DNA of 64,000 bases, taken from positions 24,706-88,705 of the forward strand of contig CANPWA010000009.1 in NCBI GenBank assembly GCA_947581865.1. The letters run 5' to 3'. Each line of letters starts with the position of its first letter. The first letter of the stretch is position 1. Of the stretch, positions 3,764-64,000 are shown one piece after another. Under the pieces are notes generated by a model that was given only the letters and a program-made list of their open reading frames with translations, was not told the DNA's origin and made no database searches. This stretch comes from an uncultured Acetatifactor sp. Its GTDB lineage: Bacteria; Bacillota; Clostridia; Lachnospirales; Lachnospiraceae. The position numbers were made by a program, and so were the translations under genes.

Positions 3764-3815
3764 AAATTTACATATGTAATCCGATAAAATATATGACGCA
3801 GAGTAGGAGGTATGT

Positions 3816-5633: not shown

Positions 5634-6482
5634 ATGAGAGTGCAGGATGGGCAGGTAAAATGGTATTTTACGGACCGACAGAAAAATTCGATGGGGACCG
5701 TCAGGCAAAGGAAGACTTCTTCCGGACGTTCAGGGAAAAAGAAGAAACTATCCTATCAATTTAAGGAAATTTCCACTGCCATCATGCAGACGAAGAATTC
5801 CGAAAGCGCCGGAAGAGTGCTGCTCAGGGCGCGCAGCCGCGCGGCGCTCCTGCGGCAGAAGATGTATTCCGGGGAGTACGATGAGCGGGAGTTAAAGGCG
5901 GCTATCCTTCACGCCGATGCGATGGTGCGTATCGCCAGAAAACGCATGAGGCATTTGAGCGAAGAGGAACAGGCCGGGCGTGAAGAAGAACATGGCAAGG
6001 CGACGGATGACGGGCGCGGGGAAAGGTCAGATCTGACTGCGGTCATTGAACAGGAGCAGGAGGCGCAGGGGGAGACCCGGGAGCTGACCGAAGAGCTGTC
6101 TGAGGAACTGTCCGAAGAATTGACCGAAGAACTGCAGGAGATGATGGAGGAAGTTATGGCTTCCATGATGGAGGAAGCTTTACAGGATACTGTCAATGCT
6201 GTGGTCGAAATGGAGCCGGCAGACCTGGAGACATTGAAAAGGAAGCACCGTTCCAAGGAACTGCGGGAGCTCATGGAAGCCGATATGAAATACCTCAAGG
6301 CTTTGTTTGACAGGCTGGAGCAGGAAAAGCGCGATGGCCCGGGCAGTCTGTCGGGCACTGCGGCGGGGCAGGAGGCGGATCCCAATGCCGTGTCATTGGA
6401 ACTGGGCGGTGCCCGGGTGCCGTTGGAAACTATCATGCCTGTAGATACCGCGGCGGGGCAAAGTGTGGACATTTCGATTTAA
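5634..6482 (+). CDS. hypothetical Glu-rich, probably coiled-coil protein
   Basis: 282-aa ORF with a basic N-terminus (RQRKTSSGRSGKKKK) and an acidic core containing ELTEELSEELSEELTEEL. No recognisable catalytic motif. Coding is supported only by length, strand context and a purine-rich stretch before the ATG. Confidence 0.5.
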   Translation: MRVQDGQVKWYFTDRQKNSMGTVRQRKTSSGRSGKKKKLSYQFKEISTAIMQTKNSESAGRVLLRARSRAALLRQKMYSGEYDERELKAAILHADAMVRIARKRMRHLSEEEQAGREEEHGKATDDGRGERSDLTAVIEQEQEAQGETRELTEELSEELSEELTEELQEMMEEVMASMMEEALQDTVNAVVEMEPADLETLKRKHRSKELRELMEADMKYLKALFDRLEQEKRDGPGSLSGTAAGQEADPNAVSLELGGARVPLETIMPVDTAAGQSVDISI

Positions 6483-7222: not shown

Positions 7223-8392
7223 ATGAACAAGGAATTGATGGAGGCACTGGACATTCTCGAGAAGGAGAAGGAGATCAGCAAGGAGACGCTTTTTGAGGCG
7301 ATCGAGAACTCTTTGCTCACCGCCTGCAAGAACCATTTTGGGAAAGCTGACAATGTGAAAGTGGAGATTGACCGTGAGACCTGTGATTTTCTGGTATATG
7401 CCCAGAAAGAGGTCGTTGAGAATGCCGAGGCTGTGGAAGACAACTGCCTGCAGATCTCACTGGAGGATGCGCAGGCTCTGTCCAAAAAGGCAAAGGTCGG
7501 GGATATCCTGAATGTGGAGATCAAATCCAAGGAGTTCGGGCGTATCGCCACACAGAATGCCAAGAATGTGATCCTGCAGAAGATCCGCGAGGAGGAGAGA
7601 AGCGTAATCTACAATCAGTATTTTGAGAAGGAGAAGGATGTGGTCACCGGCGTAGTACAGAGAAACGTGGGCAGAAACATCAGCATCAATCTCGGAAAGG
7701 CGGATGCCCTTCTCACAGAGAGCGAACAGGTAAAAGGAGAGGTGTTCAAACCTACCGAACGCATTAAGGTATATATCCTGGAGGTGAAAAATACCTCCAA
7801 GGGTCCCCGTATCAATGTCAGCCGCACACATCCGGAGCTGGTGAAGAGACTTTTTGAGTCGGAGGTTACCGAAATTAAGGACGGCGTTGTGGAGATCATG
7901 AGTATTGCCAGAGAGGCGGGCAGCCGGACCAAGATCGCCGTCTGGAGCAATAACCCCAATGTGGATGCAGTGGGGGCCTGTGTGGGCATGAACGGCGCGA
8001 GGGTAAACGCCATCGTGGAGGAGCTGAGGGGCGAGAAGATCGATATCGTTCCCTGGGATGAGAATCCCGGCAATTTCATTCAGAATGCCCTGTCTCCCGC
8101 GAAGGTCGTGGCAGTGTTCGCGGATCCCGATGAGAAGACGGCAAAGGTGGTCGTTCCCGACTACCAGCTCTCCCTTGCCATCGGCAAAGAGGGACAGAAT
8201 GCCAGACTTGCCGCGAGACTGACGGGATATAAGATCGACATTAAGTCGGAGACCCAGGCCAAGGATGCACCCGGTTTCCGCTATGAGGATTACATGGATG
8301 ACGAGTACGATGAGGAATACGACGAAGAGTATGACGAATATGCCGAGGGAGAATATGAGGAAGACGGCTATCCGGAGAACACGGAGGAATAG
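7223..8392 (+). CDS. nusA: transcription termination/antitermination factor NusA
   Basis: Has an N-terminal domain, S1 and two KH domains (GACVGMNGARV, LAIGKEGQNARLA) plus an acidic DEEY-rich tail. GGAGG at 7213-7217 favours ATG 7223 over 7220 or the track start 7193. Confidence 0.95.
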   Translation: MNKELMEALDILEKEKEISKETLFEAIENSLLTACKNHFGKADNVKVEIDRETCDFLVYAQKEVVENAEAVEDNCLQISLEDAQALSKKAKVGDILNVEIKSKEFGRIATQNAKNVILQKIREEERSVIYNQYFEKEKDVVTGVVQRNVGRNISINLGKADALLTESEQVKGEVFKPTERIKVYILEVKNTSKGPRINVSRTHPELVKRLFESEVTEIKDGVVEIMSIAREAGSRTKIAVWSNNPNVDAVGACVGMNGARVNAIVEELRGEKIDIVPWDENPGNFIQNALSPAKVVAVFADPDEKTAKVVVPDYQLSLAIGKEGQNARLAARLTGYKIDIKSETQAKDAPGFRYEDYMDDEYDEEYDEEYDEYAEGEYEEDGYPENTEE

Positions 8393-11897: not shown

Positions 11898-12254
11898 ATG
11901 AGGAAGAACAGCGTAAAAAATACCCGTGTGAACGGGGAAGTGCAGCGTGAACTCGCTGAGATCATACAAAGCGGGATCAAGGATCCCCGCATCCATCCCC
12001 TGACCAGTGTGGTTGCGGTGGAGGTTGCTCCCGATCTGAAGAGCTGTAAGGCGTGGATCAGCGTCTTAGGCGGCGAGGAAGAGCGGGAGGCGACTCTGCA
12101 GGGGCTTAGGAGTGCCGAAGGATTTATCAGAAGGCAGCTTGCGCAGAGGATCAATCTGCGCAACACTCCGGAGCTCACTTTTGTGATGGATCAGTCCATC
12201 GAGTACGGGGTCAATATGTCCCGCAGAATTGACGAAATTGTGGGAAAAGAGTGA
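11898..12254 (+). CDS. rbfA: ribosome-binding factor A
   Basis: Internal ATG 11898 of ORF 11763..12254. RVNGEVQRELAEII and LRNTPELTF blocks are typical of RbfA. Conserved position after infB. Confidence 0.9.
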   Translation: MRKNSVKNTRVNGEVQRELAEIIQSGIKDPRIHPLTSVVAVEVAPDLKSCKAWISVLGGEEEREATLQGLRSAEGFIRRQLAQRINLRNTPELTFVMDQSIEYGVNMSRRIDEIVGKE

Positions 12255-52183: not shown

Positions 52184-53284
52184 ATGTTTGACAGATTAGA
52201 AGATTTACTGATCCGGTTTGAGGAGATCATGGGGGAGCTTCACGAGCCCACCGTCACCGCCAACCAGGAGCGTTTCCGCAGACTCATGAAGGAGCAGAGT
52301 GAACTGACTCCCATCGTGGACGCGTATACCGAGTATAAGAAGTGCAGACAGGATATCGAGGATTCTCTGGCGATGCTGGATGAGGAGAACGATGAAGAGA
52401 TGCGCGACATGATCAAGGAGACCTTAAACGACAGCCGCAGGAGGGTGGAGGAACTGGAGCGGGAACTGAAGATTCTGCTGCTCCCGAAGGACCCCAATGA
52501 CGACAAGAATGTGATCGTGGAGATACGCGCCGGAGCCGGCGGAGACGAGGCGGCTTTGTTTGCCGCAGAGATTTACCGTATGTATGTGCATTACGCCGAG
52601 GGACGACACTGGAAGGTGGAGACCATGAACGTGGATGAGATCGGCATCGGCGGCATGAAGGAAGTGCAGTTTATGATCAATGGCCAGGGCGCATACTCCG
52701 TGATGAAGTACGAGAGCGGAGTGCACCGCGTGCAGCGTGTGCCGGAGACGGAGAGCGGAGGGCGCATTCACACCTCTACCATCAGTGTGGCAGTGATGCC
52801 TGAGGTGGACGAGGATATTGACATCAAGATAGAAGACAAGGATATCCGCATTGACGTCATGCGCGCCTCCGGAAACGGCGGTCAGTGCGTCAATACGACG
52901 GATTCCGCTGTGCGCCTGACCCACTATCCCACGGGAATCGTGGTGTACAGTCAGACGGAGAAGTCCCAGATTCAGAATAAAGCGAAGGCTTTTGCCCTGT
53001 TGAAGGCAAAGCTCTATGATATCGAACAGCAGCAGCGCCACGATGCGGAGGCCCAGCTGCGCCGCAGCCAGATCGGTACGGGTGACCGCTCCGAGAAGAT
53101 CCGCACTTACAATTTCCCGCAGGGGCGTGTGACGGATCACCGCATCGGGCTGACTATTTATAAGCTGGATAAAGTGATGGACGGGGATATCCAGGAGATC
53201 CTGGACGCGTGCATCGCGGCGGATCAGGCGGCAAAGCTGGCGAAGATGAATGAGAATGAATTCGCGGGAAGCTCTGCCAGGTAA
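52184..53284 (+). CDS. prfA: peptide chain release factor 1
   Basis: PET tripeptide context ([17 protein letters not shown]) and the GGQ motif ([16 protein letters not shown]). Confidence 0.97.
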
Positions 53285-53330
53285 AGGAGGACGATAAGAA
53301 CATTCTGTGCGGAAAGGATCGGTATGGATA

Positions 53331-53358
53331 CGGGCGGCGGGGAATCCCCGCCGCCCTT
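53331..53358 (+). terminator. possible terminator after prfA
   Basis: GGGCGGCGGGG-AAT-CCCCGCCGCCC, an 11-bp GC stem followed by only TTT. Confidence 0.45.
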
Positions 53359-53487
53359 TGACTATGACCGCAAAAAAATTTCCGCGGCTGAGGATAGGTG
53401 CTCATTTTTCGGAAAAAGAGATATATTATTTTATTAGGAACAGACGCGGGGATACGGATGGTAAGTTTCCGAGGAGGTAGATGCCGG

Positions 53488-55500
53488 ATGAATCTTCCCA
53501 GACATTATTATGGAGAATTGTATTTTAACGGTGGGGATGACGGAGGGCTGCTGTTCGAGGATCAGAATGCGGTCACGGAACTTTTGGATAGGAATGGCGC
53601 AGTGGGAATTGTAGGGTTCTATGACGAGCCGGATTATCCCATCTGTTTTATTTCGGGATTTGCCCTGACAGCGCTCGGTTATGACTTTGATGGGCTGATA
53701 GAGGACTCGGGCGGAAAATTCATCAATGTGCTCTATGAAAAGGATCGGGATGATTTTATCGCAGACTGTCAGGACCGGGAGAGGACCCGTCAGGAGTTCC
53801 GGCTGGTCAGACGCGGGGGATCGCCCGTGTGGGTAACTGCCTGCCACAAAGAATCCGTCTCTTCAGAAGGGCGCAGGATACGGATCATGTCTGTGCGGGT
53901 GGCGGAGGATGCCCGCAGGAGGGAGAGCGGGCTGTTGGAGGCATTGTCCAAGGGATATGACCGCATTATTTATGTGGACGTAAACCGTGGCCGTTACCGG
54001 GTGGTCAGGATGGAACATGGTGATTCTGACGAACAGATCTGCGCTGCGGCGAAGGAACTTGCAGAACTTCTGCGTCAGTATGAGAGAGAATATATCAGCC
54101 CGGAGGATTATTCCTTTGTGGAACTTTTGGGCAGACTGGATCTCTTTGAAGTGGAATCCGGCGGAGGATATTATCAGGCGACCTATCGCGCCAGAGTTGA
54201 CGGAGCCTGCCAGTGGGTACAGTTTCAGGTCTTTTACGGCGGAGACATCGACAGGGACAAGGGGCACATCCTTCTGACCTTCCGGACGGTGGATGAGGAG
54301 AAGCAGAGGGAGCTGGATGCCAGCCGTATCCTGTCAGAATCTCTGGCGAAAGCGGAGGAAGCGGGGCGGGTGAAAAATAAATTCCTTGCCCGCATGTCCC
54401 ACGATCTGCGCACGCCGATCAATGGCATCATAGGATTGCTGGACATCGCCCGGAGAAATCCGGATGACGCCGGAAAGAGAAACGAATGTATGGACAAAAT
54501 CCGGGTTTCCTGTGAGTATCTTCTCAGTCTGGTAAATGATGTGCTGGATATGAATGATCTGGAGAACGGGCATACAAAGCTGGAGGAAACGGTCTTTGAT
54601 TTTTATGAGGTGATCAAGGAGAGTGAGCGCGCTGCCCTGAAGATGACGGGGGCAAAAGGGCTGGTGTTCAGTTCCAGGATCGAACCGTTTGAACATTCCA
54701 GGGTCCTTGGCAGCCCCAAACATATCCGGCAGATGTTTCACCATATTTTGGACAACGCAGTGAAGTATAATAAGCCGGGCGGCTCGGTGTGTGTCTCGGG
54801 CAGGGAGGTATCCTGCAGCGGCAGGATCGCGGTATATGAGTTTATCTTTGAGGACACGGGAATAGGAATGAGCCGGGAATTTCTCAGGTACATTTTTGAG
54901 CCTTTTGAACAGGAGCATAATGAGGCGCGCTCCGAATATATGGGTACCGGGCTGGGAATGTCCATTGTAAAGCGCCTGGTGGATCATATGAACGGAGATA
55001 TTTTGGTGGAGAGCGAGGCAGGGGAACGCACCAAAGTGACCGTTACGCTTCCCTTCCGGATCTGCCGGGAGGAAGAGCTGGAAGAAAAAACAGGGGACTG
55101 TGATCTGACGGGGGTCCGTGTTCTGCTGGCGGAGGACAATGAACTGAATATGGATATCGCCAGATATCTGCTGGAGGATGCGGGGCTGGAAGTGTCCTGC
55201 GCAAAGAACGGCAGGGCGGCGCTGGAGATGTTTGCAAATTCCGAGGAGAATGAGTTTGACATTATCCTTATGGACATCATGATGCCGGTGATGGACGGGC
55301 TCGAGGCGACCAGGGCGATCAGGAATCTGAAGCGGGCCGATGCGCGGCACATTCCCATTTTTGCCCTCAGCGCCAACGTGATGGAGGAAGATGTCAAGAA
55401 GACCAAAATGGCAGGAATGAATGAGCATTTATCCAAACCGATCGACAGCAGCCTGATGTTGAAAGAAATCAGGAAATATGTGCAGAAGAAGCCTGAATAA
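53488..55500 (+). CDS. cytoplasmic hybrid sensor histidine kinase / response regulator (PAS-HisKA-HATPase-REC)
   Basis: No TM segments. Has a PAS-like N-terminal region, the H-box FLARMSHDLRTPING, the N-box NAVKYN, the G-boxes DTGIGM / GTGLGMSIV, and a receiver domain (LLAEDNELN...ILMDIMMPVMDG...LSKP). Start taken at ATG 53488 after GGAGG. Confidence 0.85.
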   Translation: MNLPRHYYGELYFNGGDDGGLLFEDQNAVTELLDRNGAVGIVGFYDEPDYPICFISGFALTALGYDFDGLIEDSGGKFINVLYEKDRDDFIADCQDRERTRQEFRLVRRGGSPVWVTACHKESVSSEGRRIRIMSVRVAEDARRRESGLLEALSKGYDRIIYVDVNRGRYRVVRMEHGDSDEQICAAAKELAELLRQYEREYISPEDYSFVELLGRLDLFEVESGGGYYQATYRARVDGACQWVQFQVFYGGDIDRDKGHILLTFRTVDEEKQRELDASRILSESLAKAEEAGRVKNKFLARMSHDLRTPINGIIGLLDIARRNPDDAGKRNECMDKIRVSCEYLLSLVNDVLDMNDLENGHTKLEETVFDFYEVIKESERAALKMTGAKGLVFSSRIEPFEHSRVLGSPKHIRQMFHHILDNAVKYNKPGGSVCVSGREVSCSGRIAVYEFIFEDTGIGMSREFLRYIFEPFEQEHNEARSEYMGTGLGMSIVKRLVDHMNGDILVESEAGERTKVTVTLPFRICREEELEEKTGDCDLTGVRVLLAEDNELNMDIARYLLEDAGLEVSCAKNGRAALEMFANSEENEFDIILMDIMMPVMDGLEATRAIRNLKRADARHIPIFALSANVMEEDVKKTKMAGMNEHLSKPIDSSLMLKEIRKYVQKKPE

Positions 55501-55716
55501 TAGGGCAAAGTCATTTTATACAAAAAACTTTCTCTGTTCCATGAGCAATTTTCACAAAAATTTGCCTTTGTCACATTATTTACTGACATTTCGTGTTTAA
55601 ATCTGTTAAAATAAGGTTATAACAAGAGTGTAGGAATGATGTGATGAGAAATCTGTTGTGAGATTGCAAAACGCTCTGCCGGAGCGGATTTGCCATGATG
55701 AGAAAGGAAGATTTTT

Positions 55717-56274
55717 GTGTTTGAAAAGGGCGAGCATGTAGTGAGTGGCAACAAGGGCGTCTGTGTGGTGGAAGATATTACGACCCTGGATATCTCCGGT
55801 GTGGATAAGGAGAGAGAGTACTATATCTTAAAACCCATCTATGTTCCGGGCAGCACGGTATATGTTCCGGTGGATACTGCCGATGGCTCTCTGCGCAGGG
55901 TGTTGAGCCGTGAGGAGGCAGACAGCCTGATCCGTGGGATCCCGGATATCCCCCTGATCACCATCTCCAATGACAAGCTGTTGGAGCAGGAGTACCGGGG
56001 GTGTATGAAGACCAATGATTGTGCGGAGTGGATCAAGATCATCAAAACCATTTATACGCGCAAACAAAAACGTCTGGCGGCAGGGCGCAAGGTCACGGCT
56101 GTGGATGCCAAGTATTTTCGGATGGCGGAGGACAATCTCTGCGGAGAACTGGCAGTTGCCCTGCAGATGCCCCGCGGGGAAGTGGAGAGTTATATCACAG
56201 AAGAAGTGGAAAGCCATATCATGGAGAGAACTGCCGGGAATACTCCCTCAAAGATGAAAGAACTGGAAAATTAA
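55717..56274 (+). CDS. CarD/CdnL-family transcriptional regulator
   Basis: The N-terminal FEKGEHVVSGNKGVCVVEDI...EYYILKP Tudor-like pattern fits CarD_CdnL_TRCF. GTG start at 55717. Confidence 0.75.
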   Translation: MFEKGEHVVSGNKGVCVVEDITTLDISGVDKEREYYILKPIYVPGSTVYVPVDTADGSLRRVLSREEADSLIRGIPDIPLITISNDKLLEQEYRGCMKTNDCAEWIKIIKTIYTRKQKRLAAGRKVTAVDAKYFRMAEDNLCGELAVALQMPRGEVESYITEEVESHIMERTAGNTPSKMKELEN

Positions 56275-56282
56275 GAAAAAAC

Positions 56283-56311
56283 TTTACAAGCAGTGAAGAA
56301 TGGTATATGAT
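56283..56311 (+). promoter_or_regulatory. candidate promoter for the thrS leader
   Basis: TTTACA (56283-56288), a 17-nt spacer, then TATGAT (56306-56311). Confidence 0.45.
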
Positions 56312-56329
56312 TAGGAATCATAGGAAAAG

Positions 56330-56598
56330 AAAGCGTTGACGAGGACAGTAGGCTGGGGAAGAACCGCAGAGAGAACCGCCCCGACGGCAGGAGAATGCCG
56401 AGGGAGCTGTGAGCGGTTTGGTTTGGAACCTTCCGAAGACCACCTCTGAGCGGCTCTAAAAAAGCCCGGCAGCCTCCGTTAAGGGCACAAATGAGAGGCA
56501 GATTGTCTTCCGCGTACTGCGGCAGGCTTTTTGCAACGAGGGTGGAACCGCGTATCTGACGTCCCTTGCAGCCCGTATGGGCTGCAAGGGATTTTTTA
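56330..56598 (+). promoter_or_regulatory. T-box riboswitch leader, threonine specifier (ACC)
   Basis: AGAGA/GA-motif region at ~56368. Specifier-loop context GAAGACCACC, with ACC at 56439-56441 followed by a purine. Conserved T-box sequence AACGAGGGTGGAACCGCG (56535-56552). A terminator hairpin lies immediately downstream, upstream of thrS. Confidence 0.85.
56563..56598 (+). terminator. T-box attenuator terminator
   Basis: CCCTTGCAGCCC-GTAT-GGGCTGCAAGGG, a 12-bp stem followed by ATTTTTTAT. Confidence 0.85.
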
Positions 56599-56689
56599 TC
56601 GAAGGGGAGATCCCTCCTGTTTGGTAAAAAACGCTTTGCAAGGATGTGCCAAGGCACATTCTTTATTCTGAAGGAATGGAGGAGACAAA

Positions 56690-58654
56690 ATGAAGATCAC
56701 ATTAAAAGACGGCTCCGTGAAGGAGTACAGCGAGGCAAAAAGCGTGTATGACATCGCGCTGGATATCAGCGAGGGGCTGGCCAGGGCAGCCTGCTGCGGC
56801 AAGGTCAATGGGAAAACAGTGGATCTGCGCACGGTTCTGGACGGGGACTGTGAACTGACCATCTGCACCGCCAATGACAAGGAGGGGCTTGCCACGATCC
56901 GCCATACCGCGTCCCATGTCATGGCGGAAGCGGTGAAGAAACTGTTTCCGGATGCCAAGGTGACCATCGGTCCCAGCATTGAGAACGGATTTTATTATGA
57001 TTTTGACCATGCGCCCTTCTCCAGGGAGGATCTGGACGCCATCGAGGCGGAGATGAAAAAGATCATCAAGGCGGGCGCAAAACTGGAGCGTTTCACCCTT
57101 CCCAGAGAGGAGGCGATCCGCTTCATGGAGGAGCGCAATGAGCCCTACAAGGTGGAGCTGATCCGGGATCTGCCCGAGGACGCGGAGATCTCCTTCTACG
57201 ACCAGGGCGGTTTTGTGGATCTGTGCGCAGGACCCCATCTGATGAGCGTCAAGGGCATCAAGGCGTTCAAACTGACCTCCTCCTCCGGCGCGTACTGGAG
57301 GGGCAATTCCGACAACGCTATGCTGCAGAGGATCTACGGCACCGCATTCAACAAAAAAGAGGAACTGGAGGAGTATCTGACCTTCCTGGAAAATATCAAG
57401 AACCGCGACCACAACAAGCTGGGCAGGGAGATGGAGCTGTTTACCACCGTGGATGTCATCGGTCAGGGGCTGCCCCTTCTGATGCCCAAGGGCGCGAAGA
57501 TCATCCAGACCATGCAGAGATGGATCGAGGATCTGGAGGACAATGAGTGGGGCTATATGCGCACCAAGACTCCTCTCATGGCCAAGAGCGATCTCTACAA
57601 GCTCTCCGGGCACTGGGATCACTATCTGGACGGCATGTTTGTGCTGGGCGATCCCCAAAAGGACAAGGAAGTGATGGCGCTGCGTCCCATGACCTGCCCC
57701 TTCCAGTATTTTGTATACAAGGCGACCCAGCATTCCTACCGGGATCTGCCCTGCCGATACAGTGAGACATCCACACTTTTCAGAAACGAGGACTCCGGCG
57801 AGATGCACGGGCTGACCCGTGTGCGCCAGTTTACCATCTCCGAGGGGCATCTGATCGTCCGCCCGGACCAGATGGTGGAGGAATTTAAAAACTGTCTGGC
57901 GCTGGCAAAGTATTGCCTGCAGACCCTGGGAGTCGAGGAGGACGTGACCTATCATCTCTCCAAATGGGATCCCGAGAACAGAGAGAAATATATCGGGGAA
58001 CCGGAAGTCTGGGAGGAGACCGAGGGGAATATCCGAAGGATCCTTCAGGAGCTGGACATCGAGTTTACCGAGGATGTGGGCGAGGCGGCGTTCTATGGCC
58101 CGAAGGTGGACATCAATACCAGAAATGTGTACGGCAAGGAAGATACCATGATCACGATCCAGTGGGATGCCCTTTTGGCCGCACAGTATGACATGTACTA
58201 TATCGATCAGAACGGCGACAAAGTCCGCCCCTATATCATCCACAGGACTTCCATGGGCTGTTATGAGAGAACACTGGCATGGCTGATCGAGAAATACGAG
58301 GGCAAATTCCCCACCTGGCTTTGTCCCGAGCAGGTGCGCATCCTTCCCATTTCCGAAAAATATGCGGATTATGCGGCAAAGGTGGAGAAGGAGCTGAAAA
58401 AGAACGGCATCCTGACGACCACGGACACCCGTTCCGAGAAGATCGGCTTCAAGATCCGGGAAGCCCGTCTGGCAAAGGTGCCCTATATGCTGGTGGTGGG
58501 TCAGAAGGAGGAAGAGGAAGGCGTTGTCTCCGTCAGAAGTCGTTTCGCGGGAGACGAGGGAACCAAGTCTCTTCAGGAGTTTATCGATCAGATCTGCGAG
58601 GAAATCCGTACCAAAGCAATCCGCAAGACTGAGGTGACGGAGGAGGGAAAATAA
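56690..58654 (+). CDS. thrS: threonine--tRNA ligase
   Basis: TGS domain start MKITLKDGSVKEY, editing domain HTASHVMA, class-II core (RVRQFTISEGH, GPKVD) and a C-terminal anticodon-binding domain. Confidence 0.97.
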   Translation: MKITLKDGSVKEYSEAKSVYDIALDISEGLARAACCGKVNGKTVDLRTVLDGDCELTICTANDKEGLATIRHTASHVMAEAVKKLFPDAKVTIGPSIENGFYYDFDHAPFSREDLDAIEAEMKKIIKAGAKLERFTLPREEAIRFMEERNEPYKVELIRDLPEDAEISFYDQGGFVDLCAGPHLMSVKGIKAFKLTSSSGAYWRGNSDNAMLQRIYGTAFNKKEELEEYLTFLENIKNRDHNKLGREMELFTTVDVIGQGLPLLMPKGAKIIQTMQRWIEDLEDNEWGYMRTKTPLMAKSDLYKLSGHWDHYLDGMFVLGDPQKDKEVMALRPMTCPFQYFVYKATQHSYRDLPCRYSETSTLFRNEDSGEMHGLTRVRQFTISEGHLIVRPDQMVEEFKNCLALAKYCLQTLGVEEDVTYHLSKWDPENREKYIGEPEVWEETEGNIRRILQELDIEFTEDVGEAAFYGPKVDINTRNVYGKEDTMITIQWDALLAAQYDMYYIDQNGDKVRPYIIHRTSMGCYERTLAWLIEKYEGKFPTWLCPEQVRILPISEKYADYAAKVEKELKKNGILTTTDTRSEKIGFKIREARLAKVPYMLVVGQKEEEEGVVSVRSRFAGDEGTKSLQEFIDQICEEIRTKAIRKTEVTEEGK

Positions 58655-58861
58655 AAAGCCGTTTACTATTTTTTGTAAGAAAATGAAATCGGCAAATAAA
58701 TAGGCAGATAAGTGGTTAAACTAAATTCTGTGCAGCCTGTCAGCGGAAAGAATGCGGTGGGCGGAATATACAAAACCGGGTGCCGAAAGGTGCGCGGGAA
58801 AGGTGTAGGATGCGGCACTGTATGGAAACCGGAAGAGGAAGGGGCACAGAAGGAGGTTATC

Positions 58862-59182
58862 ATGGCAGATTTGACATGTGGTGTGACGAATTGTACCTAC
58901 AATCAGGAATGCCTTTGCAGCAAGGGAGATATCATGGTGGGCGGCAGACATGCCTGCAACTGTGACGAGACATGCTGTGACAGTTTTGCGGAGCGCAGAG
59001 AGGACTATGATGCCTTTACAAGCTCTCTGTCTCATCCCAGCAGGACCATCAGCATCGACTGTGAGGCAGTAAAGTGTATTCACAACAGCAATTATAAGTG
59101 TGTGGCGGAGCATGTGGACATCAAGGGCTGCGGGGCATGCAACTGCAGAGAGACCAGCTGCGCAACATTCTACGAGCGCTAG
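58862..59182 (+). CDS. DUF1540 cysteine-rich small protein
   Basis: Two copies of the C..NC.YN....C.A..I.V pattern (CGVTNCTYNQECLCSKGDIMV and VKCIHNSNYKCVAEHVDIKG). AGGAGG lies 6 nt before ATG 58862; the longer track ORF from 58712 has no RBS. Confidence 0.75.
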   Translation: MADLTCGVTNCTYNQECLCSKGDIMVGGRHACNCDETCCDSFAERREDYDAFTSSLSHPSRTISIDCEAVKCIHNSNYKCVAEHVDIKGCGACNCRETSCATFYER

Positions 59183-59254
59183 TACAGGGAGCGGATGAAA
59201 CAGGGTGTTTTGTCCGCCCTACATAAAAACCGCATAAAAATCTCTTTTTATTTC

Positions 59255-59283
59255 TTGACAACGGTAACATAAAGTGGTATTTT
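59255..59283 (+). promoter_or_regulatory. sigma-A-type promoter of infC-rpmI-rplT operon
   Basis: TTGACA (59255-59260), a 17-nt spacer ending in TGG, then TATTTT (59278-59283), which is extended -10 like. Confidence 0.5.
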
Positions 59284-59289
59284 ATAGAA

Positions 59290-59440
59290 GTGTACAGCGG
59301 CGGTCTGGCTTTGGCAGGCTGCCGGCTGTACCAAAAACAAGCAGAGTATCCACTCTCACCTTACGGCGATCGGGCTGGTAAGCGTTCAGATATTTCATCC
59401 TCCTGTTTTGCTGAAGAAGCGGAATGGAATGGGATTTTGA
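59290..59440 (+). promoter_or_regulatory. candidate ribosomal protein L20 leader (autoregulatory 5' UTR)
   Basis: A ~200-nt untranslated leader between the promoter and infC, with the long hairpin GTACAGCGGCGG...CTGCCGGCTGTAC. In Firmicutes this position is occupied by the L20-responsive leader. The call rests on position and structure only. Confidence 0.35.
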
Positions 59441-59503
59441 GTGGATAGTCATGCTATCCGCTTTTTTAATTTCTTATGGAGGTATACGACCATTAGCGAT
59501 TTA

Positions 59504-59998
59504 ATGATTAACGAGCAGATTCGTGACAAAGAGGTGCGTGTGATCGGGGAGAACGGCGGGCAGTTAGGGATCATGCCCACAAGGGAGGCAATGAAGCTTG
59601 CAGAAGAGGCGGGGCTGGATCTGGTGAAGATCGCACCCACAGCACAACCCCCTGTGTGCAGGATCGTGGACTACGGCAAGTACAAGTATGAACAGCTCCG
59701 CAAGGAGAAGGAAGCCAGGAAGAAGCAGAAAGTTATTGAGATCAAGGAGATCCGGCTCTCCCCCAATATTGATACCAATGACTTGAACACTAAGACCAAT
59801 TCGGCGAGAAAGTTTCTCACCAAGGGCGACAGAGTGAAGATCACGCTGCGTTTCAGAGGTCGTGAGATGGCGCATATGAATAACAGCAGACACATTCTTG
59901 ATGACTTCGCAGAAGCTTTGGCGGATGTGGCTGTTGTGGAGAAAGCACCCAAGGTGGAAGGCAGAAGCATGACCATGTTTCTTGCCCAGAAAAAGTAA
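59504..59998 (+). CDS. infC: translation initiation factor IF-3
   Basis: INEQIRDKEVRVIGENGGQLGIM, VCRIVDYGKYKYE and the C-terminal domain KEIRLSPNIDTNDL. ATG 59504 was chosen; an atypical upstream start, as is common for infC, cannot be excluded. Confidence 0.9.
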   Translation: MINEQIRDKEVRVIGENGGQLGIMPTREAMKLAEEAGLDLVKIAPTAQPPVCRIVDYGKYKYEQLRKEKEARKKQKVIEIKEIRLSPNIDTNDLNTKTNSARKFLTKGDRVKITLRFRGREMAHMNNSRHILDDFAEALADVAVVEKAPKVEGRSMTMFLAQKK

Positions 59999-60112
59999 GG
60001 ATGCCATGAAAAGGGATGCAGGCGCCGGGGTTGGACAACAATCCTGTGTGCATCAAATAAAAGCGGTTTGACCTTTGATCGCAACCAATGAATATTTTAG
60101 GAGGAAACAGTT

Positions 60113-60310
60113 ATGCCCAAAATGAAAACAAGCAGGTCCGCTGCTAAGCGTTTTAAAGTAACCGGTACCGGTAAATTAAAGAGAGCGAAGGCGTATAAGA
60201 GCCATATTCTGACTAAGAAGAGCACCAAGAGAAAGCGCAATCTGAGAAAGCCCGCTATCACGGATACTACCAATGTAAAGAATATGAAGAAGATTTTACC
60301 CTATTTATAA
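60113..60310 (+). CDS. rpmI: 50S ribosomal protein L35
   Basis: Starts [24 protein letters not shown]. Confidence 0.95.
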
Positions 60311-60334
60311 GTCGGGCAAGGAGGAGAATGAGAC

Positions 60335-60691
60335 ATGGCAAGAATTAAAGGTGGCTTGAATGCCAAGAAGAAACATAATCGCGTGCTGAAGCTTGCAAAA
60401 GGCTACAGAGGCGCAAGAAGCAAACAGTACAGAGTGGCCAAGCAGTCCGTTATGAGGGCTCTGGCAAGTTCCTATGTGGGAAGAAAAGAGAGAAAACGTC
60501 AGTTCAGACAGCTTTGGATCGCCCGCATCAACGCGGCGGCAAGACTCAACGGTCTCTCCTACAGCAAGTTCATGTACGGGCTGAAGCAGGCAGGCATCGA
60601 GATGAACAGAAAGATGCTCGCTGAAATGGCAGTAAATGATGCGGACGGGTTTAAGACCCTGGCAGAGCTTGCGAAGAGCAAACTGGCATAA
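60335..60691 (+). CDS. rplT: 50S ribosomal protein L20
   Basis: [29 protein letters not shown]...[11 protein letters not shown]. Confidence 0.95.
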
Positions 60692-60697
60692 TGATTA

Positions 60698-60737
60698 CCC
60701 CCGGGGCAGACGGGATCTGCCCCGGGGGTTTTGTGTT
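60698..60737 (+). terminator. intrinsic terminator after rplT
   Basis: CCCCCGGGGCAGA-CGGGA-TCTGCCCCGGGGG, a 13-bp stem followed by TTTTGTGTT. Confidence 0.85.
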
Positions 60738-60765
60738 ATGGGGAGACAATGAACAAACCAGTGTG

Positions 60766-61309
60766 TCATTTCACTTCGATCTGCTGTGCCGCCAGCTGCT
60801 CCGCCCCGTACTGTTTCCGCAGAGCGGGCTTTTCGATCTTACCGGTGGCATTGCGGGGAACTTCCGCGAAAATGATCTTCTTCGGGCGTTTGTAACGGGG
60901 AAGCTCTCTGCAAAACTCCTCAATCAGTAGAAGCCGTCCTCATCCTGCATGGCCATGTCTCCGGTGTAAAGCCAGCCGTCCTTTAAGGTGGCAGCGGTGG
61001 CTTCGGGATCATTGTAATAACAGGTCATGATGCCGGGACCGGTGGACTCGGACAGCCCATAGTTGGTGTCGTAGAGGTGGTGGGGGAAGTATTCCTTCCA
61101 GTGCCTGATGAGAGAAGGGGGACGGGCTGCGCACCGATGTGCATCAGCCGCCACTGTGACAGTTCGTAATCTTCAAGCTTCAGATCCCCTCTGTCCAGCG
61201 CGTCCAGAATATCCTGTGCCCAGGGGACCAGAAGCCACACGATGGTGCAGTGTTCCCTGGATATCGCATCCAGAATGATCTCCGGGGTTGTGCCCTTTAA
61301 CAAAAACAT
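60766..61309 (-). pseudogene. decayed C-terminal remnant of an AMP-dependent acyl-CoA synthetase/ligase
   Basis: Three minus-strand fragments lie in three different frames. The first reads ...TTPEIILDAISREHCTIVWLLVPWAQ...[12 protein letters not shown]. The second reads [12 protein letters not shown]...[10 protein letters not shown]...[31 protein letters not shown]. The third reads [33 protein letters not shown]...*. These are conserved AMP-binding-family blocks, but the N-terminal ~300 aa and internal segments are missing. Confidence 0.7.
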
Positions 61310-61374
61310 TTTGGTATCTTTTTTGCCTCAAATCGGAATTACCGAAAAATTCCTTAAAAAATTTAAAATTGTGC

Positions 61375-61403
61375 TGGAAATCTACCGCAAGCTGTAGTAT
61401 AAT
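61375..61403 (+). promoter_or_regulatory. candidate promoter of tRNA-Gly
   Basis: TGGAAA (61375-61380), a 17-nt spacer, then TATAAT (61398-61403), 10 nt before the tRNA 5' end. Confidence 0.4.
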
Positions 61404-61412
61404 CATATACAT

Positions 61413-61483
<71 letters not shown>

Positions 61484-61495
61484 TGCCCTTTTTCT

Positions 61496-61522
61496 AAGCC
61501 GGGTCAATCGACACGGCTTTTT
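61496..61522 (+). terminator. hairpin terminator after tRNA-Gly (overlaps integrase stop)
   Basis: AAGCCG / CGGCTT stem with a 12-nt loop, followed by TTTTT. Confidence 0.45.
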
Positions 61523-62588
61523 AAATGTACTTTAATCCATCACGCATATACTCCAAAAGAACATTATAATTATTACGATAATTAAGGATATAGCTGTTTT
61601 CCGTAGTGGAAATCTCACTATGTCCAACAAGATCAGAGATCACACGCGTGGGTACTCCACTGAAATGCAACTTCGTCACAAAGGACTTGCGTATAAGATG
61701 CGAATTGAAAACGGGCACATTACACAGTTTACAAAGGTTACACAAAGTACGCTCCAGTGATGTATAAAGCACTATATCCGTACCGTCATACGCAAGATAG
61801 GGACTATCCCATTTCTTTAAATCATGGTAATGCTTAATCTTCTCATAGATCAGCTTTACTTCCGGCAAAAGCGGTATTTCACGGACAGAATACACTGTTT
61901 TTACTGAATCCATGACACGATACACCATTACACCAAGTTTGGAGCCGTCCTCAAGCCGTTCATAAAACTTTGCCTGGGTCTTATAAATCTTGACAACATT
62001 CCGCTCAAAATCAAAGTCATCAAAAGTAAGTGCTGCCAACTCACCAACGCGCAACCCAAGATAAAAATTCATGCACAGGCAGAGGGACGCACACCGCTTA
62101 TCAGGATAAATGTTATAATTGACCACATTATCAATAATACGGGCAATATCATCATCCTTTAAGGCATATTCCTGTTTCACATCTTTTTCCAGTTTATCCA
62201 CAGGAAGATAACGCTTAATGCGATCCCAATCATACAGACGGACACCGCCGCATTTCAGATCACGCATATAGACAAGAACATTATTGACGATCTGCAATAT
62301 ACGGAGATATTCCTTATATGTAACAGACGGATAACGGACGATACATTCCTTAAGATAGCTGATTATATCATCCTCACTAATTTTTGAAATACACTTATCA
62401 AAAAGGGAACTGCATTCATAGTAGCGTTTCCAGGTACACTCGATTCGATCAAGAGTCTGCGGCTTGACTATAAGACGCTTCATGCAAAACCACTGTCTAA
62501 AAGCCACATAAAAGGGAATCTCCTCAAAAGAATCCATATCAATGATATGCTTATCATATCCAATCTCCAACCATTCCTGTTGTGTCAC
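61521..62588 (-). CDS. int: tyrosine site-specific recombinase (phage integrase family)
   Basis: Catalytic signature: Arg in YLGLRVGELAAL, H-x-x-R in SHLIRKSF, and H...Y in LVGHSEISTTENSY. GTG start at 62588 preceded by AGAGGTGA. The stop lies 37 nt from the tRNA-Gly 3' end. Confidence 0.9.
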   Translation of the reverse strand: MTQQEWLEIGYDKHIIDMDSFEEIPFYVAFRQWFCMKRLIVKPQTLDRIECTWKRYYECSSLFDKCISKISEDDIISYLKECIVRYPSVTYKEYLRILQIVNNVLVYMRDLKCGGVRLYDWDRIKRYLPVDKLEKDVKQEYALKDDDIARIIDNVVNYNIYPDKRCASLCLCMNFYLGLRVGELAALTFDDFDFERNVVKIYKTQAKFYERLEDGSKLGVMVYRVMDSVKTVYSVREIPLLPEVKLIYEKIKHYHDLKKWDSPYLAYDGTDIVLYTSLERTLCNLCKLCNVPVFNSHLIRKSFVTKLHFSGVPTRVISDLVGHSEISTTENSYILNYRNNYNVLLEYMRDGLKYI

Positions 62589-62601
62589 ACAATCACCTCT
62601 T

Positions 62602-63507
62602 TCATTTTTTTAACCTTTTCATACGTTGAAGAAAACGCCTAGACGGTCTTGAAATACTCTGCGCATCAGAAGGAGTATTCTGCTGTAGCGCAAGAATATC
62701 ACTTTCAGAAAGCATATCACCCTCACGGCAGGACTTGCCAAGGCTATCCACACAAGCAAGCGTATCATATGCCGCATAATCCTTATCACGGATAAACCAG
62801 CCAAACCGAGCAAGCGGCTTTACATCCAGCGGATTATATGTATTCTCCAGCTCATAAGCATCATACTTTGCCTGAACCATAACGCGCCAGCACTTCCTGC
62901 AGGAAATGACATAGCTTGTCACCTGACGCAAGAGAGCATCAACGTGGTTAAAACGCTGGGACGTATAAAAAAAACTGATATGGTGGTGCCGACAGGTAAG
63001 CAAAGTATTTAAAAACAAAGGATCGATATTGGACTTAAAAGAGCGGCTATTAAGCTGTACGGAAAACTCATCACCAAGCACCAAATGGACAGTAAGAGTA
63101 TCATCCTTCTCATCAATATCACGATACCGCTCTGCAACAGAAACAAGCTGAGAAAGAGACACAAAACGCTCATAAGGAACACCAATGAGATCAACATTAG
63201 ATATTATATGAACTTTCTGCGTCACCCATTTTTTACGGAATGGATCGTATACTTTCAAATCATTATAACGGCGATAATATCCCTGCAATATCTCATGAAC
63301 AACCGAAAGGGTTTTACCTTTACCAAAAAGCCCAATGTAACAAACAATAACGCCTGTGCGGCAATTCCTCCATTTTTTATAACGGAAATAATCCAAGGCA
63401 TCCTTTAAAAAATAGCCGGCAGTGGCGAAAGGATGAAGCAATACCACACGGAAAGAAACCGAAAAGAACAATGCGATCATTAAAATTGCAAAAACAAAAA
63501 TAATCAT
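62602..63507 (-). CDS. Zot / inovirus pI-like P-loop assembly ATPase with N-terminal membrane anchor
   Basis: Hydrophobic N-terminus MIIFVFAILMIALFFSVSF. Walker A GLFGKGKT, IISNVDL and Walker-B-like VHLVLGDEF. The block CRHHHISFFYTSQRFNHVD parallels the RH.G.D....TQ block of the Zot family (PF05707, as I recall it). Confidence 0.75.
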   Translation of the reverse strand: MIIFVFAILMIALFFSVSFRVVLLHPFATAGYFLKDALDYFRYKKWRNCRTGVIVCYIGLFGKGKTLSVVHEILQGYYRRYNDLKVYDPFRKKWVTQKVHIISNVDLIGVPYERFVSLSQLVSVAERYRDIDEKDDTLTVHLVLGDEFSVQLNSRSFKSNIDPLFLNTLLTCRHHHISFFYTSQRFNHVDALLRQVTSYVISCRKCWRVMVQAKYDAYELENTYNPLDVKPLARFGWFIRDKDYAAYDTLACVDSLGKSCREGDMLSESDILALQQNTPSDAQSISRPSRRFLQRMKRLKK

Positions 63508-63686
63508 CTTCGCACCTCACTTATCTGTCTCACAAAACTGAAACATATGCCTACCGTAAAGCGGATAAACTCCAACCCGGCGCACAGACTGCACAACCAG
63601 TACATGAACGTAGGAAAATCCGTAGGGACAGAAGAAATTCCAAAAAAATCCAACATCTGAAAAATAACACCACTCATTGCAATCAC
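63504..63686 (-). CDS. 60-aa hydrophobic protein (pVI-like position)
   Basis: GTG start overlaps the upstream stop (GTGA), and its stop overlaps the ATPase start (ATGA). Two hydrophobic stretches. Coding is inferred from the coupling and the position between the coat-like gene and the ATPase. Confidence 0.5.
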   Translation of the reverse strand: MIAMSGVIFQMLDFFGISSVPTDFPTFMYWLCSLCAGLEFIRFTVGICFSFVRQISEVRR

Positions 63687-64000
63687 CTCTTTCTCAACAA
63701 TAAAGTTTGAAAAACAAGAGCAACCAGTATCAAAAGTAACAACCCATCCGTTACTCCATAATCAGCAATATCCGATTCCCAAAGGGGAACAACATCAGGA
63801 GGCGATACGCTATAGACAACGGACATAAATACAGGAGCATCACCATCGGAGACTGCTACAGGAGCATCACCGTCAGAGACTGCTACAGGAGCATCACCAT
63901 CAGAGACTGCTACAGGAGCATCACCGTCAGAAACTGCTACCGGAATATCAGAAGCACCGTTTTCAGAAGATGGTACATCATCCAAAACAAACGGTTCAGT
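63683..64000 (-). CDS. acidic repeat protein with C-terminal TM helix and basic tail (inovirus coat/adsorption-protein-like); 5' end possibly outside the window
   Basis: The track ORF 63683..63985 starts at a TTG, but the frame stays open to the window edge. Four VAVSDGDAP repeats are followed by the GLLLLILVALVFQTLLL anchor and RKR. Confidence 0.55.
   Translation of the reverse strand, partial: TEPFVLDDVPSSENGASDIPVAVSDGDAPVAVSDGDAPVAVSDGDAPVAVSDGDAPVFMSVVYSVSPPDVVPLWESDIADYGVTDGLLLLILVALVFQTLLLRKR
63831..63938 (-). repeat. 27-bp tandem repeat x4 inside the coat-like gene
   Basis: Units ACAGGAGCATCACC(A/G)TC(G/A)GA(G/A)ACTGCT start at 63831, 63858, 63885 and 63912. All differences between units are synonymous in the minus-strand reading frame. 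Confidence 0.9.

Follow-up and report, generated by a model that had tools for sequence, protein, structure and literature searches.

A probable inovirus-type prophage with a CRESS-type replication gene at a tRNA-Gly(CCC) gene of a gut Lachnospiraceae genome

Results

Organisation of the locus

The 64,000-nucleotide stretch of DNA analysed here (the window; contig CANPWA010000009.1 from an uncultured Acetatifactor sp.) ends inside a small integrated element that begins at a tRNA-Gly(CCC) gene, and it is this element that we describe. At the tRNA gene the GC content falls from 0.50-0.56 upstream to 0.38-0.45 downstream, in agreement with the change towards AT-rich DNA remarked on in an initial reading of the window by itself (the sequence-only reading). 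That reading had placed four co-directional open reading frames (ORFs) on the minus strand, and all four were recovered (61521-62588, 62602-63507, 63504-63686 and 63683-63985), together with the ATGA overlap at 63504-63507; as that reading also gave it, the integrase gene is separated by 13 nt from the ATPase gene and by 37 nt from the tRNA. The GTGA overlap that it described at 63683-63686 is probably no real start/stop overlap, given that the small hydrophobic gene, itself correctly located, likely begins at an ATG at 63677 (57 residues, with GAGG 6 nt upstream and the same start in the gene call) and not at the GTG that would give 60 residues.

The element continues on a 225-kb ENA contig encoding the same ATPase. 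The locus on this contig (L001) is 100% identical to window positions 52602-64000 over 11,399 bp, and is therefore the same genome continued past the window edge. There the element is complete at 8,368 bp, of which the window holds 2,516 bp (~30%). Twelve genes lie between its attachment (att) repeats, intact and tightly packed, and 11 of them are on one strand (Table 1); small, circular, dense genomes of ~5-15 kb with nearly all genes on one strand are a trait of Tubulavirales. The acidic repeat protein at the window edge does end in a membrane helix and a basic tail, as the sequence-only reading had it, but its ORF is cut by the window end and the complete protein in L001 has 136 residues instead of 100. 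Its identification of a tyrosine integrase is borne out by the Pfam match. A rolling-circle Rep and small coat-size proteins, which it suggested looking for further into the element, are represented by a Rep with HUH and SF3 domains and by several membrane proteins of 49-59 residues.

Table 1. Features of the element and of its integration site. Genes are numbered in element order; window positions count from the first nucleotide of the window, L001 positions from that of the locus on the 225-kb contig.
Feature	Size	Window position	Strand	L001 position	Basis or remarks
tRNA-Gly(CCC), integration target		61413..61483	+		ARAGORN; gene intact in the lysogen; only tRNA found in the region
att core GCGGGTTCGATTCCCGTTATCTGCTT	26 nt	61459..61484	.	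12024-12049	T arm, 3' acceptor strand and 1 nt; BLAST and repeat finder; occupied and empty junctions differ exactly at the core borders
att repeat, far copy	26 nt			3656-3681	BLAST and repeat finder
Phage-derived spacer		61485..61520	+		Imperfect hairpin, then T run (AAGCCGGGTCAATCGACACGGCTTTTT); read directly from the sequence
Gene 12, tyrosine integrase	355 aa	61521..62588	-		Pfam Phage_integrase PF00589, 7.3e-15, 55.6 bits (cut-off 27.1); PHROG 1 integrase, 7e-28
Gene 11, Zot/pI-like morphogenesis ATPase	301 aa	62602..63507	-		N-terminal membrane helix (residues 1-24), then P-loop domain; Walker A GLFGKGKT
Gene 10, small hydrophobic membrane protein	57 aa	63504..63677	-		One predicted membrane helix; ORF list, gene call, hydropathy; 60 aa if the GTG at 63686 is used
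Gene 9, acidic repeat protein	136 aa	63683..64000	-		C-terminal 105 codons in the window, cut by its end; C-terminal membrane helix and RKR tail; net charge -29
27-nt tandem repeat in gene 9	4.3 copies	63830..63944	.		93% matches; encodes (VAVSDGDAP)n; Tandem Repeats Finder score 195; repeat finder
Gene 8, small membrane protein	49 aa				
Gene 7, large anchored protein	507 aa				
Gene 6, coat-like protein	59 aa				
Intrinsic terminator				7636-7653	Directly 3' of the coat-like gene
Gene 5, unnamed ORF	89 aa				
Gene 4, unnamed ORF	79 aa				Divergent strand
Gene 3, SprT-like metalloprotease	218 aa			5517-6173	PF10263, 1.6e-6; PHROG 6361 (unknown function), 3e-24; HEMVH motif
Gene 2, unnamed ORF	75 aa				
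Gene 1, rep	341 aa				
Origin hairpin	24 nt			3768-3791	Same strand as rep
att-to-rep intergenic region				3682-3900	
86-nt repeat, two copies	86 nt			5106-5191; 6835-6920	Copies 74% identical

The element is precisely inserted and polymorphic among strains

The element is delimited by an exact 26-nt direct repeat, AAGCAGATAACGGGAATCGAACCCGC, detected both by BLAST and by a repeat finder; the sequence-only reading had suggested looking for such a repeat within ~4-15 kb, and the start-to-start distance between its copies gives the length of 8,368 bp. With imperfect similarity the repeat stretches to 41 nt. The 3' end of the tRNA-Gly(CCC) gene forms the second copy, and phage DNA therefore starts at 61485. 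The short spacer between the core and the integrase gene probably takes the place of the tRNA gene's host terminator, and its hairpin was not called by a terminator scanner. At the empty site the tRNA is followed by a host hairpin, TGCCCCGG...CCGGGGCA.

Contigs from other samples, retrieved through an HD-domain protein of the host encoded next to the element's far end, show two different continuations. Two are occupied (L095 and L097) and run from the host flank through the core into phage DNA. Two others carry an unoccupied attB (L096 from DRR848814 and L098 from SRR29273041), in which the host flank and core are followed by CTCCTCAGCTTGGGAAGCTG, the body of the tRNA; a contig from the rplT side in the same sample as L096 (L007) shares 30 nt with it, within the tRNA. 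The element is therefore inserted precisely, is bounded by the core and is polymorphic. Strains with and without it encode a 100% identical protein in the flanking host gene, and some of the samples have neighbouring run accessions, which suggests a recent gain or loss. The recombinase gene beside the att site, the repeats of the tRNA 3' end and the unoccupied attB elsewhere are together what is found for prophages that target tRNA genes with a tyrosine integrase.

The junctions expected of the excised and empty forms would be GGCTTAGAAAAAGGGC-AAGCAGATAACGGGAATCGAACCCGC-GTTTTCATGCTTGGGCAC for attP and CTGCTTTTCT-core-CTCCTCAGCTTGGG for attB. Samples ERZ27059539, ERR10663674, ERR10663675 and SRR29273037 contain the lysogen. 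An exact 46-nt search of the JGI metagenomes for attB gave 0 matches, and the empty site was reached later through the flanking host protein. One 8,758-bp contig (L002) was considered as a free circle and ruled out, being L001 3314-12071, a fragment of the integrated state without terminal overlap.

Five short Logan contigs from the rplT side (L006-L010, equivalent to window 59335-61483), each from a different sample, end inside or at the end of the tRNA-Gly gene. Such ends are compatible with branching of the assembly graph between occupied and empty sites, without proving it; assemblies also break at tRNA genes for other reasons, and we did not use these contigs as evidence for mixed populations.

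The ATPase belongs to a large Zot/pI-like family

The ATPase has relatives in 2,537 clusters at 90% identity (E ≤ 0.001), or 337 representatives at 50% identity. Among 47 diverse members of this family, the Pfam Zot profile was matched by 29 (best 3.7e-8) and Pox_A32 by 7 (best 1.7e-4), while FtsK_SpoIIIE was matched by none at E ≤ 0.01. Since it is relatives 27-50% identical to the window ATPase that match Zot, its own membership is transitive and not direct. A profile of the family retrieved one relevant structure from the PDB, the N-terminal domain of Zot from Neisseria meningitidis (2r2a, 1.7e-7). An AlphaFold model of the ATPase (mean pLDDT 89.9) was compared with known and predicted structures using Foldseek. 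The best viral match was Zot of an Inoviridae sp. (2e-9), ahead of A32-type ATPases, and the best PDB match was again 2r2a (7.6e-8), followed by RadA with a ~60-fold worse E-value (5e-6); A32 and STIV B204 ranked below Zot, and FtsK came 33rd. Compared with PHROGs, the single sequence matched a 'head morphogenesis' family (3e-7), a Zot-like family (0.01) and M13 protein I (0.016).

Judged by sequence profile and predicted fold, the ATPase is clearly Zot/pI-like at the family level, and at that level the element possesses the pI/Zot-type morphogenesis ATPase of the FtsK superfamily that characterises Tubulavirales and Efunaviria. The sequence-only reading had proposed a Zot/pI-like ATPase outright; this holds for the family but not for the single sequence, which stays below the Pfam threshold. 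Once the family is considered, no other P-loop family is preferred to Zot, though the single sequence marginally favours Pox_A32.

The residues that follow the N-terminal helix are positively charged, so that the ATPase domain would be cytoplasmic, and the lack of a periplasmic domain would fit a host without an outer membrane. ATPases at least 50% identical occur in 90 species representatives, nearly all of them Lachnospiraceae, Oscillospiraceae or other Clostridia; cultured carriers of close relatives include Clostridium minihomine Marseille-P4642, C. merdae Marseille-P2953 and Intestinimonas massiliensis Marseille-P3064. Searches of IMG/VR with peptide patterns confirmed no close relative. 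The alignment of diverse ATPases held no stretch conserved enough for locus finding, and related loci were located with close homologues.

A block of small membrane proteins is conserved upstream of the ATPase gene

Iterative profile searches with the proteins of the element were run against the ORFs of 83 related loci, taken from GTDB species representatives among which Lachnospiraceae and Oscillospiraceae predominate and the three cultured species named above are included. Five families recur on the ATPase strand, with median starts measured from the start of the ATPase gene: the coat-like family of the 59-residue protein (63/83 loci, -3.3 kb), the 507-residue type (73/83, -2.6 kb), the 49-residue type (75/83, -0.8 kb), the 136-residue type (59/83, -0.6 kb) and the 57-residue type (60/83, -0.19 kb and always on that strand). 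These offsets are those expected of one fixed gene order. Hydrophobic families can drift in iterative searches, but here they lie strictly on one strand and at consistent offsets, which speaks against drift.

In the 59-residue protein a membrane helix spans residues 32-50, and the tail reads RQLKNTARS. Across its family the N-terminal part is amphipathic, at least one membrane helix is predicted in 62 of 63 members, exactly one in 51 of those 62, and the C-terminal tail of ~11 residues has a net charge of +1 to +5 in all 62; some members have leader-like, cleavable-looking N-termini ending in A-x-A. On these sequence features, the layout of the family is that of inovirus major coat proteins. 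An intrinsic terminator lies directly 3' of the coat-like gene, and in Ff phages there is likewise a terminator after gVIII.

The 507-residue protein, which had no match in the PDB or in phage databases, carries a hydrophobic segment at the N-terminus (signal or anchor) and an anchor at the C-terminus. Ff pIII has this topology, and by size and topology this protein, encoded outside the window, is therefore probably a better gIII analogue than the 136-residue acidic protein. Of the gIII-gVI-gI order proposed in the sequence-only reading, the pI-like ATPase thus stands, and the assignment of gIII to the acidic protein probably does not. The 57-residue protein is a candidate minor coat or assembly protein. 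Just upstream of the coat-like gene lies the gene for the 89-residue protein, which is without a membrane helix; a word search found only 3 homologues, and pairwise hhalign comparisons with its positional analogues in relatives were weak (E 9e-4 to 0.02).

The same genes could be read as those of a pleomorphic enveloped virus, like a plasmavirus or pleolipovirus, that buds as a vesicle and for which the 507-residue protein would be the spike, the small proteins would belong to the envelope and the ATPase would be the conserved NTPase. Alphapleolipoviruses have a comparable order of genes, namely Rep, a small membrane protein, a large protein with signal and anchor, small ORFs and an NTPase, and the 37.2-kDa protein of Acholeplasma phage L2 is among the fold matches of the ATPase (rank 22, E 1.8e-5). 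Inovirus Zot nevertheless matches better than the L2 protein by about four orders of magnitude in E-value, and the amphipathic N-terminal part, single membrane helix and +1 to +5 tail of the 59-residue family are the layout of an inovirus coat protein. Relatives moreover carry an inovirus G2P Rep, and inovirus prophages in the host's own bacterial family have been seen to form filaments (PMC10061712). We regard budding of this kind as improbable.

The morphogenesis block is combined with different replication and integration genes

The Rep of the element is present in only 12 of the 83 related loci, and a related integrase in 25. Other relatives with the same morphogenesis module have a classical inovirus G2P-type Rep (PF23343) and an IS30-like transposase. 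In a contig from a goat rectum Oscillospiraceae metagenome-assembled genome (MAG), a 141-bp terminal overlap gives a circle of 9.9 kb (L054 1-10051); its ATPase is 54% identical to ours, and a G2P-type Rep (PF23343) and an IS30-like transposase replace the CRESS-type Rep and the tyrosine integrase. A tRNA gene lies within a few kb of the ATPase gene in ~30 of 55 related loci, with varying isoacceptors.

A related element of ~10.3 kb occupies the same locus, between the HD-domain gene, tRNA-Gly(CCC) and rplT, in an Acetatifactor sp. MAG (L016 1722-12035). It is bounded by a 30-nt att repeat and has the origin hairpin GAGGTTGGGGG-CCAGTATTAC-CCCCCAACCTC. The host flanks at that locus are 78-85% identical in nucleotide sequence to those of the present genome, which therefore places the host near Acetatifactor in the Lachnospiraceae.

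Related Reps (42-52% identical) also occur in the bajarodino viruses, which come from rodent faeces and are filed under Inoviridae (PQ006121, PQ006124, PQ006184 and others; genomes of 5.7-10.2 kb). Of these, PQ006184 was inspected: it is a circular genome that pairs an annotated Zot with such a Rep. The Zot of these viruses is a different lineage, as it was not found by tblastn with the ATPase of the element and scored only 28.6 bits with the family profile; PQ006184, unlike the element, gave no AGTATTAC hairpin in a strict search.

A CRESS-type Rep accompanied by a circovirus-like origin hairpin

The Rep scores above the Pfam thresholds for both Viral_Rep (PF02407; 34.6 against 26) and RNA_helicase (PF00910, SF3; 23.6 against 21.5), which is the pairing of HUH endonuclease with SF3 helicase found in CRESS-DNA viruses. 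Its motifs KWLLTF, HTHLY, DYVFKEGK, GSGKT, ILFEE, FCTN and RR are all conserved in 12 relatives. Compared solely by the diagnostic motifs of Kazlauskas et al. (PMC6668415), the Glu in Walker B (ILFEE) and the Asn in motif C are pCRESS2-like states.

The hairpin GTCGGGGG-CAGTATTA-CCCCCGAC stands ~150 nt upstream of rep, and its loop carries CAGTATTAC, a nonanucleotide of the NANTATTAC type. TGTTCCA iterons follow the hairpin in tandem, and more of them stand in direct and inverted orientation nearer rep. The hairpin is found in 11 of the 12 relatives with this Rep, 50-520 nt upstream of rep, where the loop AGTATTAC is invariant and the stems of 10-16 bp differ in sequence yet remain complementary. 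An invariant loop on covarying stems is the pattern expected of a functional origin. The region between att and rep is strongly structured as single-stranded DNA (ssDNA; -52.9 kcal/mol against -24.9 ± 3.3 for shuffled sequences, z = -8.4). It also contains, beside the origin hairpin and adjoining attP, a GC-rich 12-bp hairpin, GCCGCGCGCGCG...CGCGCGCGGC, that may serve to start the complementary strand or to signal packaging.

The origins of circoviruses, nanoviruses and further CRESS-DNA viruses likewise have a stem-loop with a (C/T)AGTATTAC nonanucleotide and iterons beside the stem, and CRESS-DNA virus Reps share HUH motifs I-III, the SF3 Walker A and Walker B motifs, motif C and the arginine finger. 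Unlike those viruses, the element has a bacterial host, integrates, and carries an inovirus-like morphogenesis module in place of a jelly-roll capsid. In the literature searched we found no discussion of a circovirus-type origin hairpin for inoviruses.

Bacterial Reps of this architecture were described by Kazlauskas et al. (2019) as pCRESS1-9, many of them from elements in tRNA-Gly genes of Clostridiales that were interpreted as integrated plasmids without viral structural genes (PMC6668415). On a rival reading the present element would be no virus but a pCRESS2-type integrated plasmid, or else an integrative and mobilisable element of that type, its ATPase serving DNA segregation or transfer and its small membrane proteins transfer or exclusion. 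Like the elements of that study, which have tyrosine integrases, FtsK-like ATPases and single-stranded DNA-binding proteins (SSBs) and of which the authors state that none encodes known viral structural proteins (PMC6668415), it has a Rep with the pCRESS2-like Walker B (ILFEE) and motif C Asn, and its structural proteins have no database match. What makes a plasmid unlikely in our view is the remainder of the element. The ATPase family is linked to Zot (29/47) and not to FtsK_SpoIIIE (0/47), in the fold comparisons Zot is best in both the PDB and viral sets with FtsK far behind, and the ATPase gene sits within a conserved block of coat-like small membrane proteins that in relatives travels with an inovirus G2P Rep. 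Domain and profile searches of the 12 proteins found no tailed-phage, relaxase, MOB, type IV secretion or FtsK_SpoIIIE domain, whereas the sequence-only reading had named tailed-phage, integrative and conjugative element or plasmid functions in the rest of the element as evidence that would refute it; the FtsK_SpoIIIE translocase, relaxase or type IV secretion component of AICE-like elements and of pCRESS 'family i' was thus not found. For Hungatella hathewayi, a supplementary table of the same study also has a Zot / 'I assembly protein' as the neighbour of a pCRESS2 Rep (PMC6668415), and this species was later reported with a predicted inovirus (PMC10061712).

A domesticated or defective remnant that no longer excises or makes particles is very unlikely. 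No circular junction turned up in any collection searched, and all five long contigs with the host rplT also carry the element; set against this, none of the 12 tightly packed genes is disrupted, the two att cores do not differ in any of their 26 nt, the Rep motifs and origin hairpin are intact, and occupied and empty sites coexist among strains with an identical flanking protein.

Other features of the element and its surroundings

Pfam and phage-family searches found no lysis or capsid domain in the proteins of the element, and no capsid-size ORF free of membrane helices, as expected of double-jelly-roll phages (Corticoviridae/Tectiviridae-like), is present. The sequence of the divergent 79-residue protein follows a ribbon-helix-helix-like pattern; its match among the PHROGs (2e-10) is to a family of unknown function. 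The two copies of an 86-nt repeat with the palindrome ACACTATGTGCATAGTGT are placed one before the operon of the 75-residue and SprT-like proteins and the other between the 79-residue gene and the structural operon, and are candidate operators of a phage repressor. A second, partly palindromic motif, TTTGAAANGTGNATNTCAAAA, occurs in five copies, mostly at gene boundaries (L001 3893-3925, 5073-5105, 6169-6189, 7676-7729 and 11094-11126).

We know of no role for an SprT-like protease in the life cycle of Ff-type filamentous phages. The gene contains a 15-nt tandem repeat at 6008-6055 encoding linkers of the GGTSS type, and the protein ends in a CxxC...CxxC zinc ribbon.

Between rplT and the tRNA gene, two ORFs of 76 and 94 codons in different frames (window 60924-61309, minus strand) together correspond to part of an AMP-binding enzyme (PF00501). 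In three other strains (L007, L009 and L010) this is a single ORF of 128 codons, and in the present genome it looks like a decaying gene fragment. The locus of the related ~10.3-kb element has ~3.4 kb of extra DNA between the tRNA and rplT.

Discussion

An inovirus-type temperate prophage

We think it likely that the element is an intact and recently mobile temperate prophage of the inovirus type (Tubulavirales, Efunaviria) which combines a morphogenesis module of that group with a CRESS-type replication module, in a Lachnospiraceae host near Acetatifactor. The hallmark of the group is pI together with a small hydrophobic coat protein, while replication modules are freely exchanged (PMC6813254, PMC13595969); a 2026 taxonomy defines Efunaviria by a hydrophobic helical coat protein and an FtsK-like ATPase, with replication modules that have been replaced many times (PMC13595969). 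The inovirus interpretation given in the sequence-only reading is supported: the att repeat exists, domain searches of the remaining genes found nothing of tailed phages, relaxases or type IV secretion and the ATPase family prefers Zot.

Several observations weigh against this interpretation. As a single sequence the ATPase reaches only 13.6 bits with Pfam Zot (PF05707; E 0.047), below the gathering threshold of 20.3, and scores slightly higher with Pox_A32 (18.0 bits, E 0.0021, cut-off 22.8). In Ff pI the membrane helix comes after the ATPase domain, and the N-terminal helix of the present ATPase is unlike it. The putative structural proteins show no detectable homology to characterised inovirus coat proteins in Pfam, phage databases or the PDB. 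A role of the 89-residue protein as a gV-like ssDNA-binding protein is unsupported: its AlphaFold model has a pLDDT of 43.8, hhalign with M13 gVp gave a probability of 0.2, and its family has no PDB match and no meaningful Pfam match (best E 0.0016). Neither an excised circle nor virions nor ssDNA have been observed for the element, which is known here from its sequence; an exact 60-nt search of IMG/VR for attP gave 0 matches, and all contigs bearing its int or rep have the integrated arrangement only. Secretion and filaments have been shown for the Enterocloster phages, to which an element known from its genes can be likened by description.

Comparison with known systems

Inovirus-like prophages of Clostridia have been catalogued, and the element belongs to an already described kind. 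Roux et al. (2019) defined inoviruses in sequence data by a pI ATPase together with single-helix proteins of 30-90 residues, accepted att repeats in tRNA genes or beside an integrase, and described families from monoderm hosts (PMC6813254). Those families resemble the element in having a pI-like ATPase as the only conserved marker, single-helix structural proteins and a tRNA att site with an integrase, and one inovirus family of rolling-circle Reps in that study, iPF_00203, has a C-terminal SF3 helicase (PMC6813254). We compared the element with six candidate families and with iPF_00203 by description; the circovirus-type hairpin is not mentioned there (PMC6813254).

The sequence-only reading regarded filamentous phages of Gram-positive gut bacteria as almost uncharacterised experimentally, which is out of date. 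Burckhardt et al. (2023) detected pI DNA protected from DNase in the supernatants of Enterocloster lysogens; two of the lysogens, E. bolteae and E. clostridioformis, showed filaments of 500-800 nm, and the predicted prophages are 6.5-8.5 kb (PMC10061712). The inoviruses of Enterocloster bolteae, E. clostridioformis, E. citroniae and Hungatella hathewayi share with the element the host family and gut habitat, and also the size range of 6.5-8.5 kb, direct repeats, a pI/Zot-like marker, 10-16 ORFs and the expected absence of a secretin (PMC10061712). Neither genus is represented among the carriers of ATPases 50-68% identical to that of the element, for which 80 species representatives were retained.

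With pCRESS2 elements the element has in common an HUH and SF3 Rep whose Walker B has Glu-Glu and whose motif C has Asn, a tyrosine integrase, integration in tRNA-Gly (att repeats of 20-33 nt) and a size of ~8-10 kb; most of them, however, encode an FtsK/EccC-like translocase and a DUF961-type SSB, where the element has a Zot/pI-like ATPase and a coat-like module (PMC6668415).

The shared order with the Ff phages (M13, fd and f1) runs from replication through a protein of ssDNA-binding size, the coat, a large anchored adsorption-type protein and small membrane proteins to the pI ATPase. Common to both are also a terminator after the coat gene, a structured intergenic region and genes on one strand. 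The element differs from Ff in its HUH and SF3 Rep instead of gII, in an ATPase with an N-terminal helix and without a periplasmic domain, in the absence of a pIV secretin and in structural proteins without detectable sequence similarity; it integrates into a tRNA gene with its own tyrosine integrase, whereas Ff phages are episomal.

A proposed life cycle

After excision to a circle, Rep would nick the loop of the origin, by analogy with circoviruses between T7 and A8, and would then drive rolling-circle synthesis of the strand bearing the nonanucleotide, which is the coding strand and the minus strand of the window. The 89-residue protein might coat this single strand. At the membrane the ATPase would power extrusion as the coat protein displaces the 89-residue protein and contacts the DNA through its basic C-terminal tail, and the large anchored protein and small membrane proteins would cap the ends of the filament. 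Because the host has a single membrane no secretin would be needed, and since there are no lysis genes release would be chronic. The 79-residue ribbon-helix-helix-like protein probably represses the two promoters that share the 86-nt operator-like repeat.

Whether the lineage consists of true filamentous phages that replicate by a circovirus-type module, with an HUH and SF3-helicase Rep acting on a hairpin of the TAGTATTAC type, we consider evenly balanced.

Significance

The element is a clean and fully bounded inovirus-type prophage of gut Lachnospiraceae, whose att sites are exactly defined, whose empty site is demonstrated and whose origin is predicted. Its value is incremental, because the phenomenon has been documented in silico (Roux et al. 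2019; Kazlauskas et al. 2019) and experimentally for Enterocloster (Burckhardt et al. 2023). What this analysis adds are the exact boundaries with the empty site and the conserved circovirus-type origin hairpin, and the recognition of an abundant ATPase lineage (2,537 clusters) that slips under the Pfam Zot threshold.

The combination of a CRESS-type Rep with a circovirus-like hairpin bears on how CRESS-DNA virus replication modules originated and on the interpretation of faecal 'CRESS' sequences. If the lineage is truly one of filamentous phages with a CRESS module, at least part of the 'pCRESS integrated plasmids' of Clostridia would be virus genomes, and bacterial inoviruses would be among the faecal 'CRESS-DNA viruses' of Rep-based surveys. 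A Lachnospiraceae lysogen that can be cultured would then be a bacterial model of CRESS-type replication, joining the hallmark modules of Efunaviria and Floreoviria.

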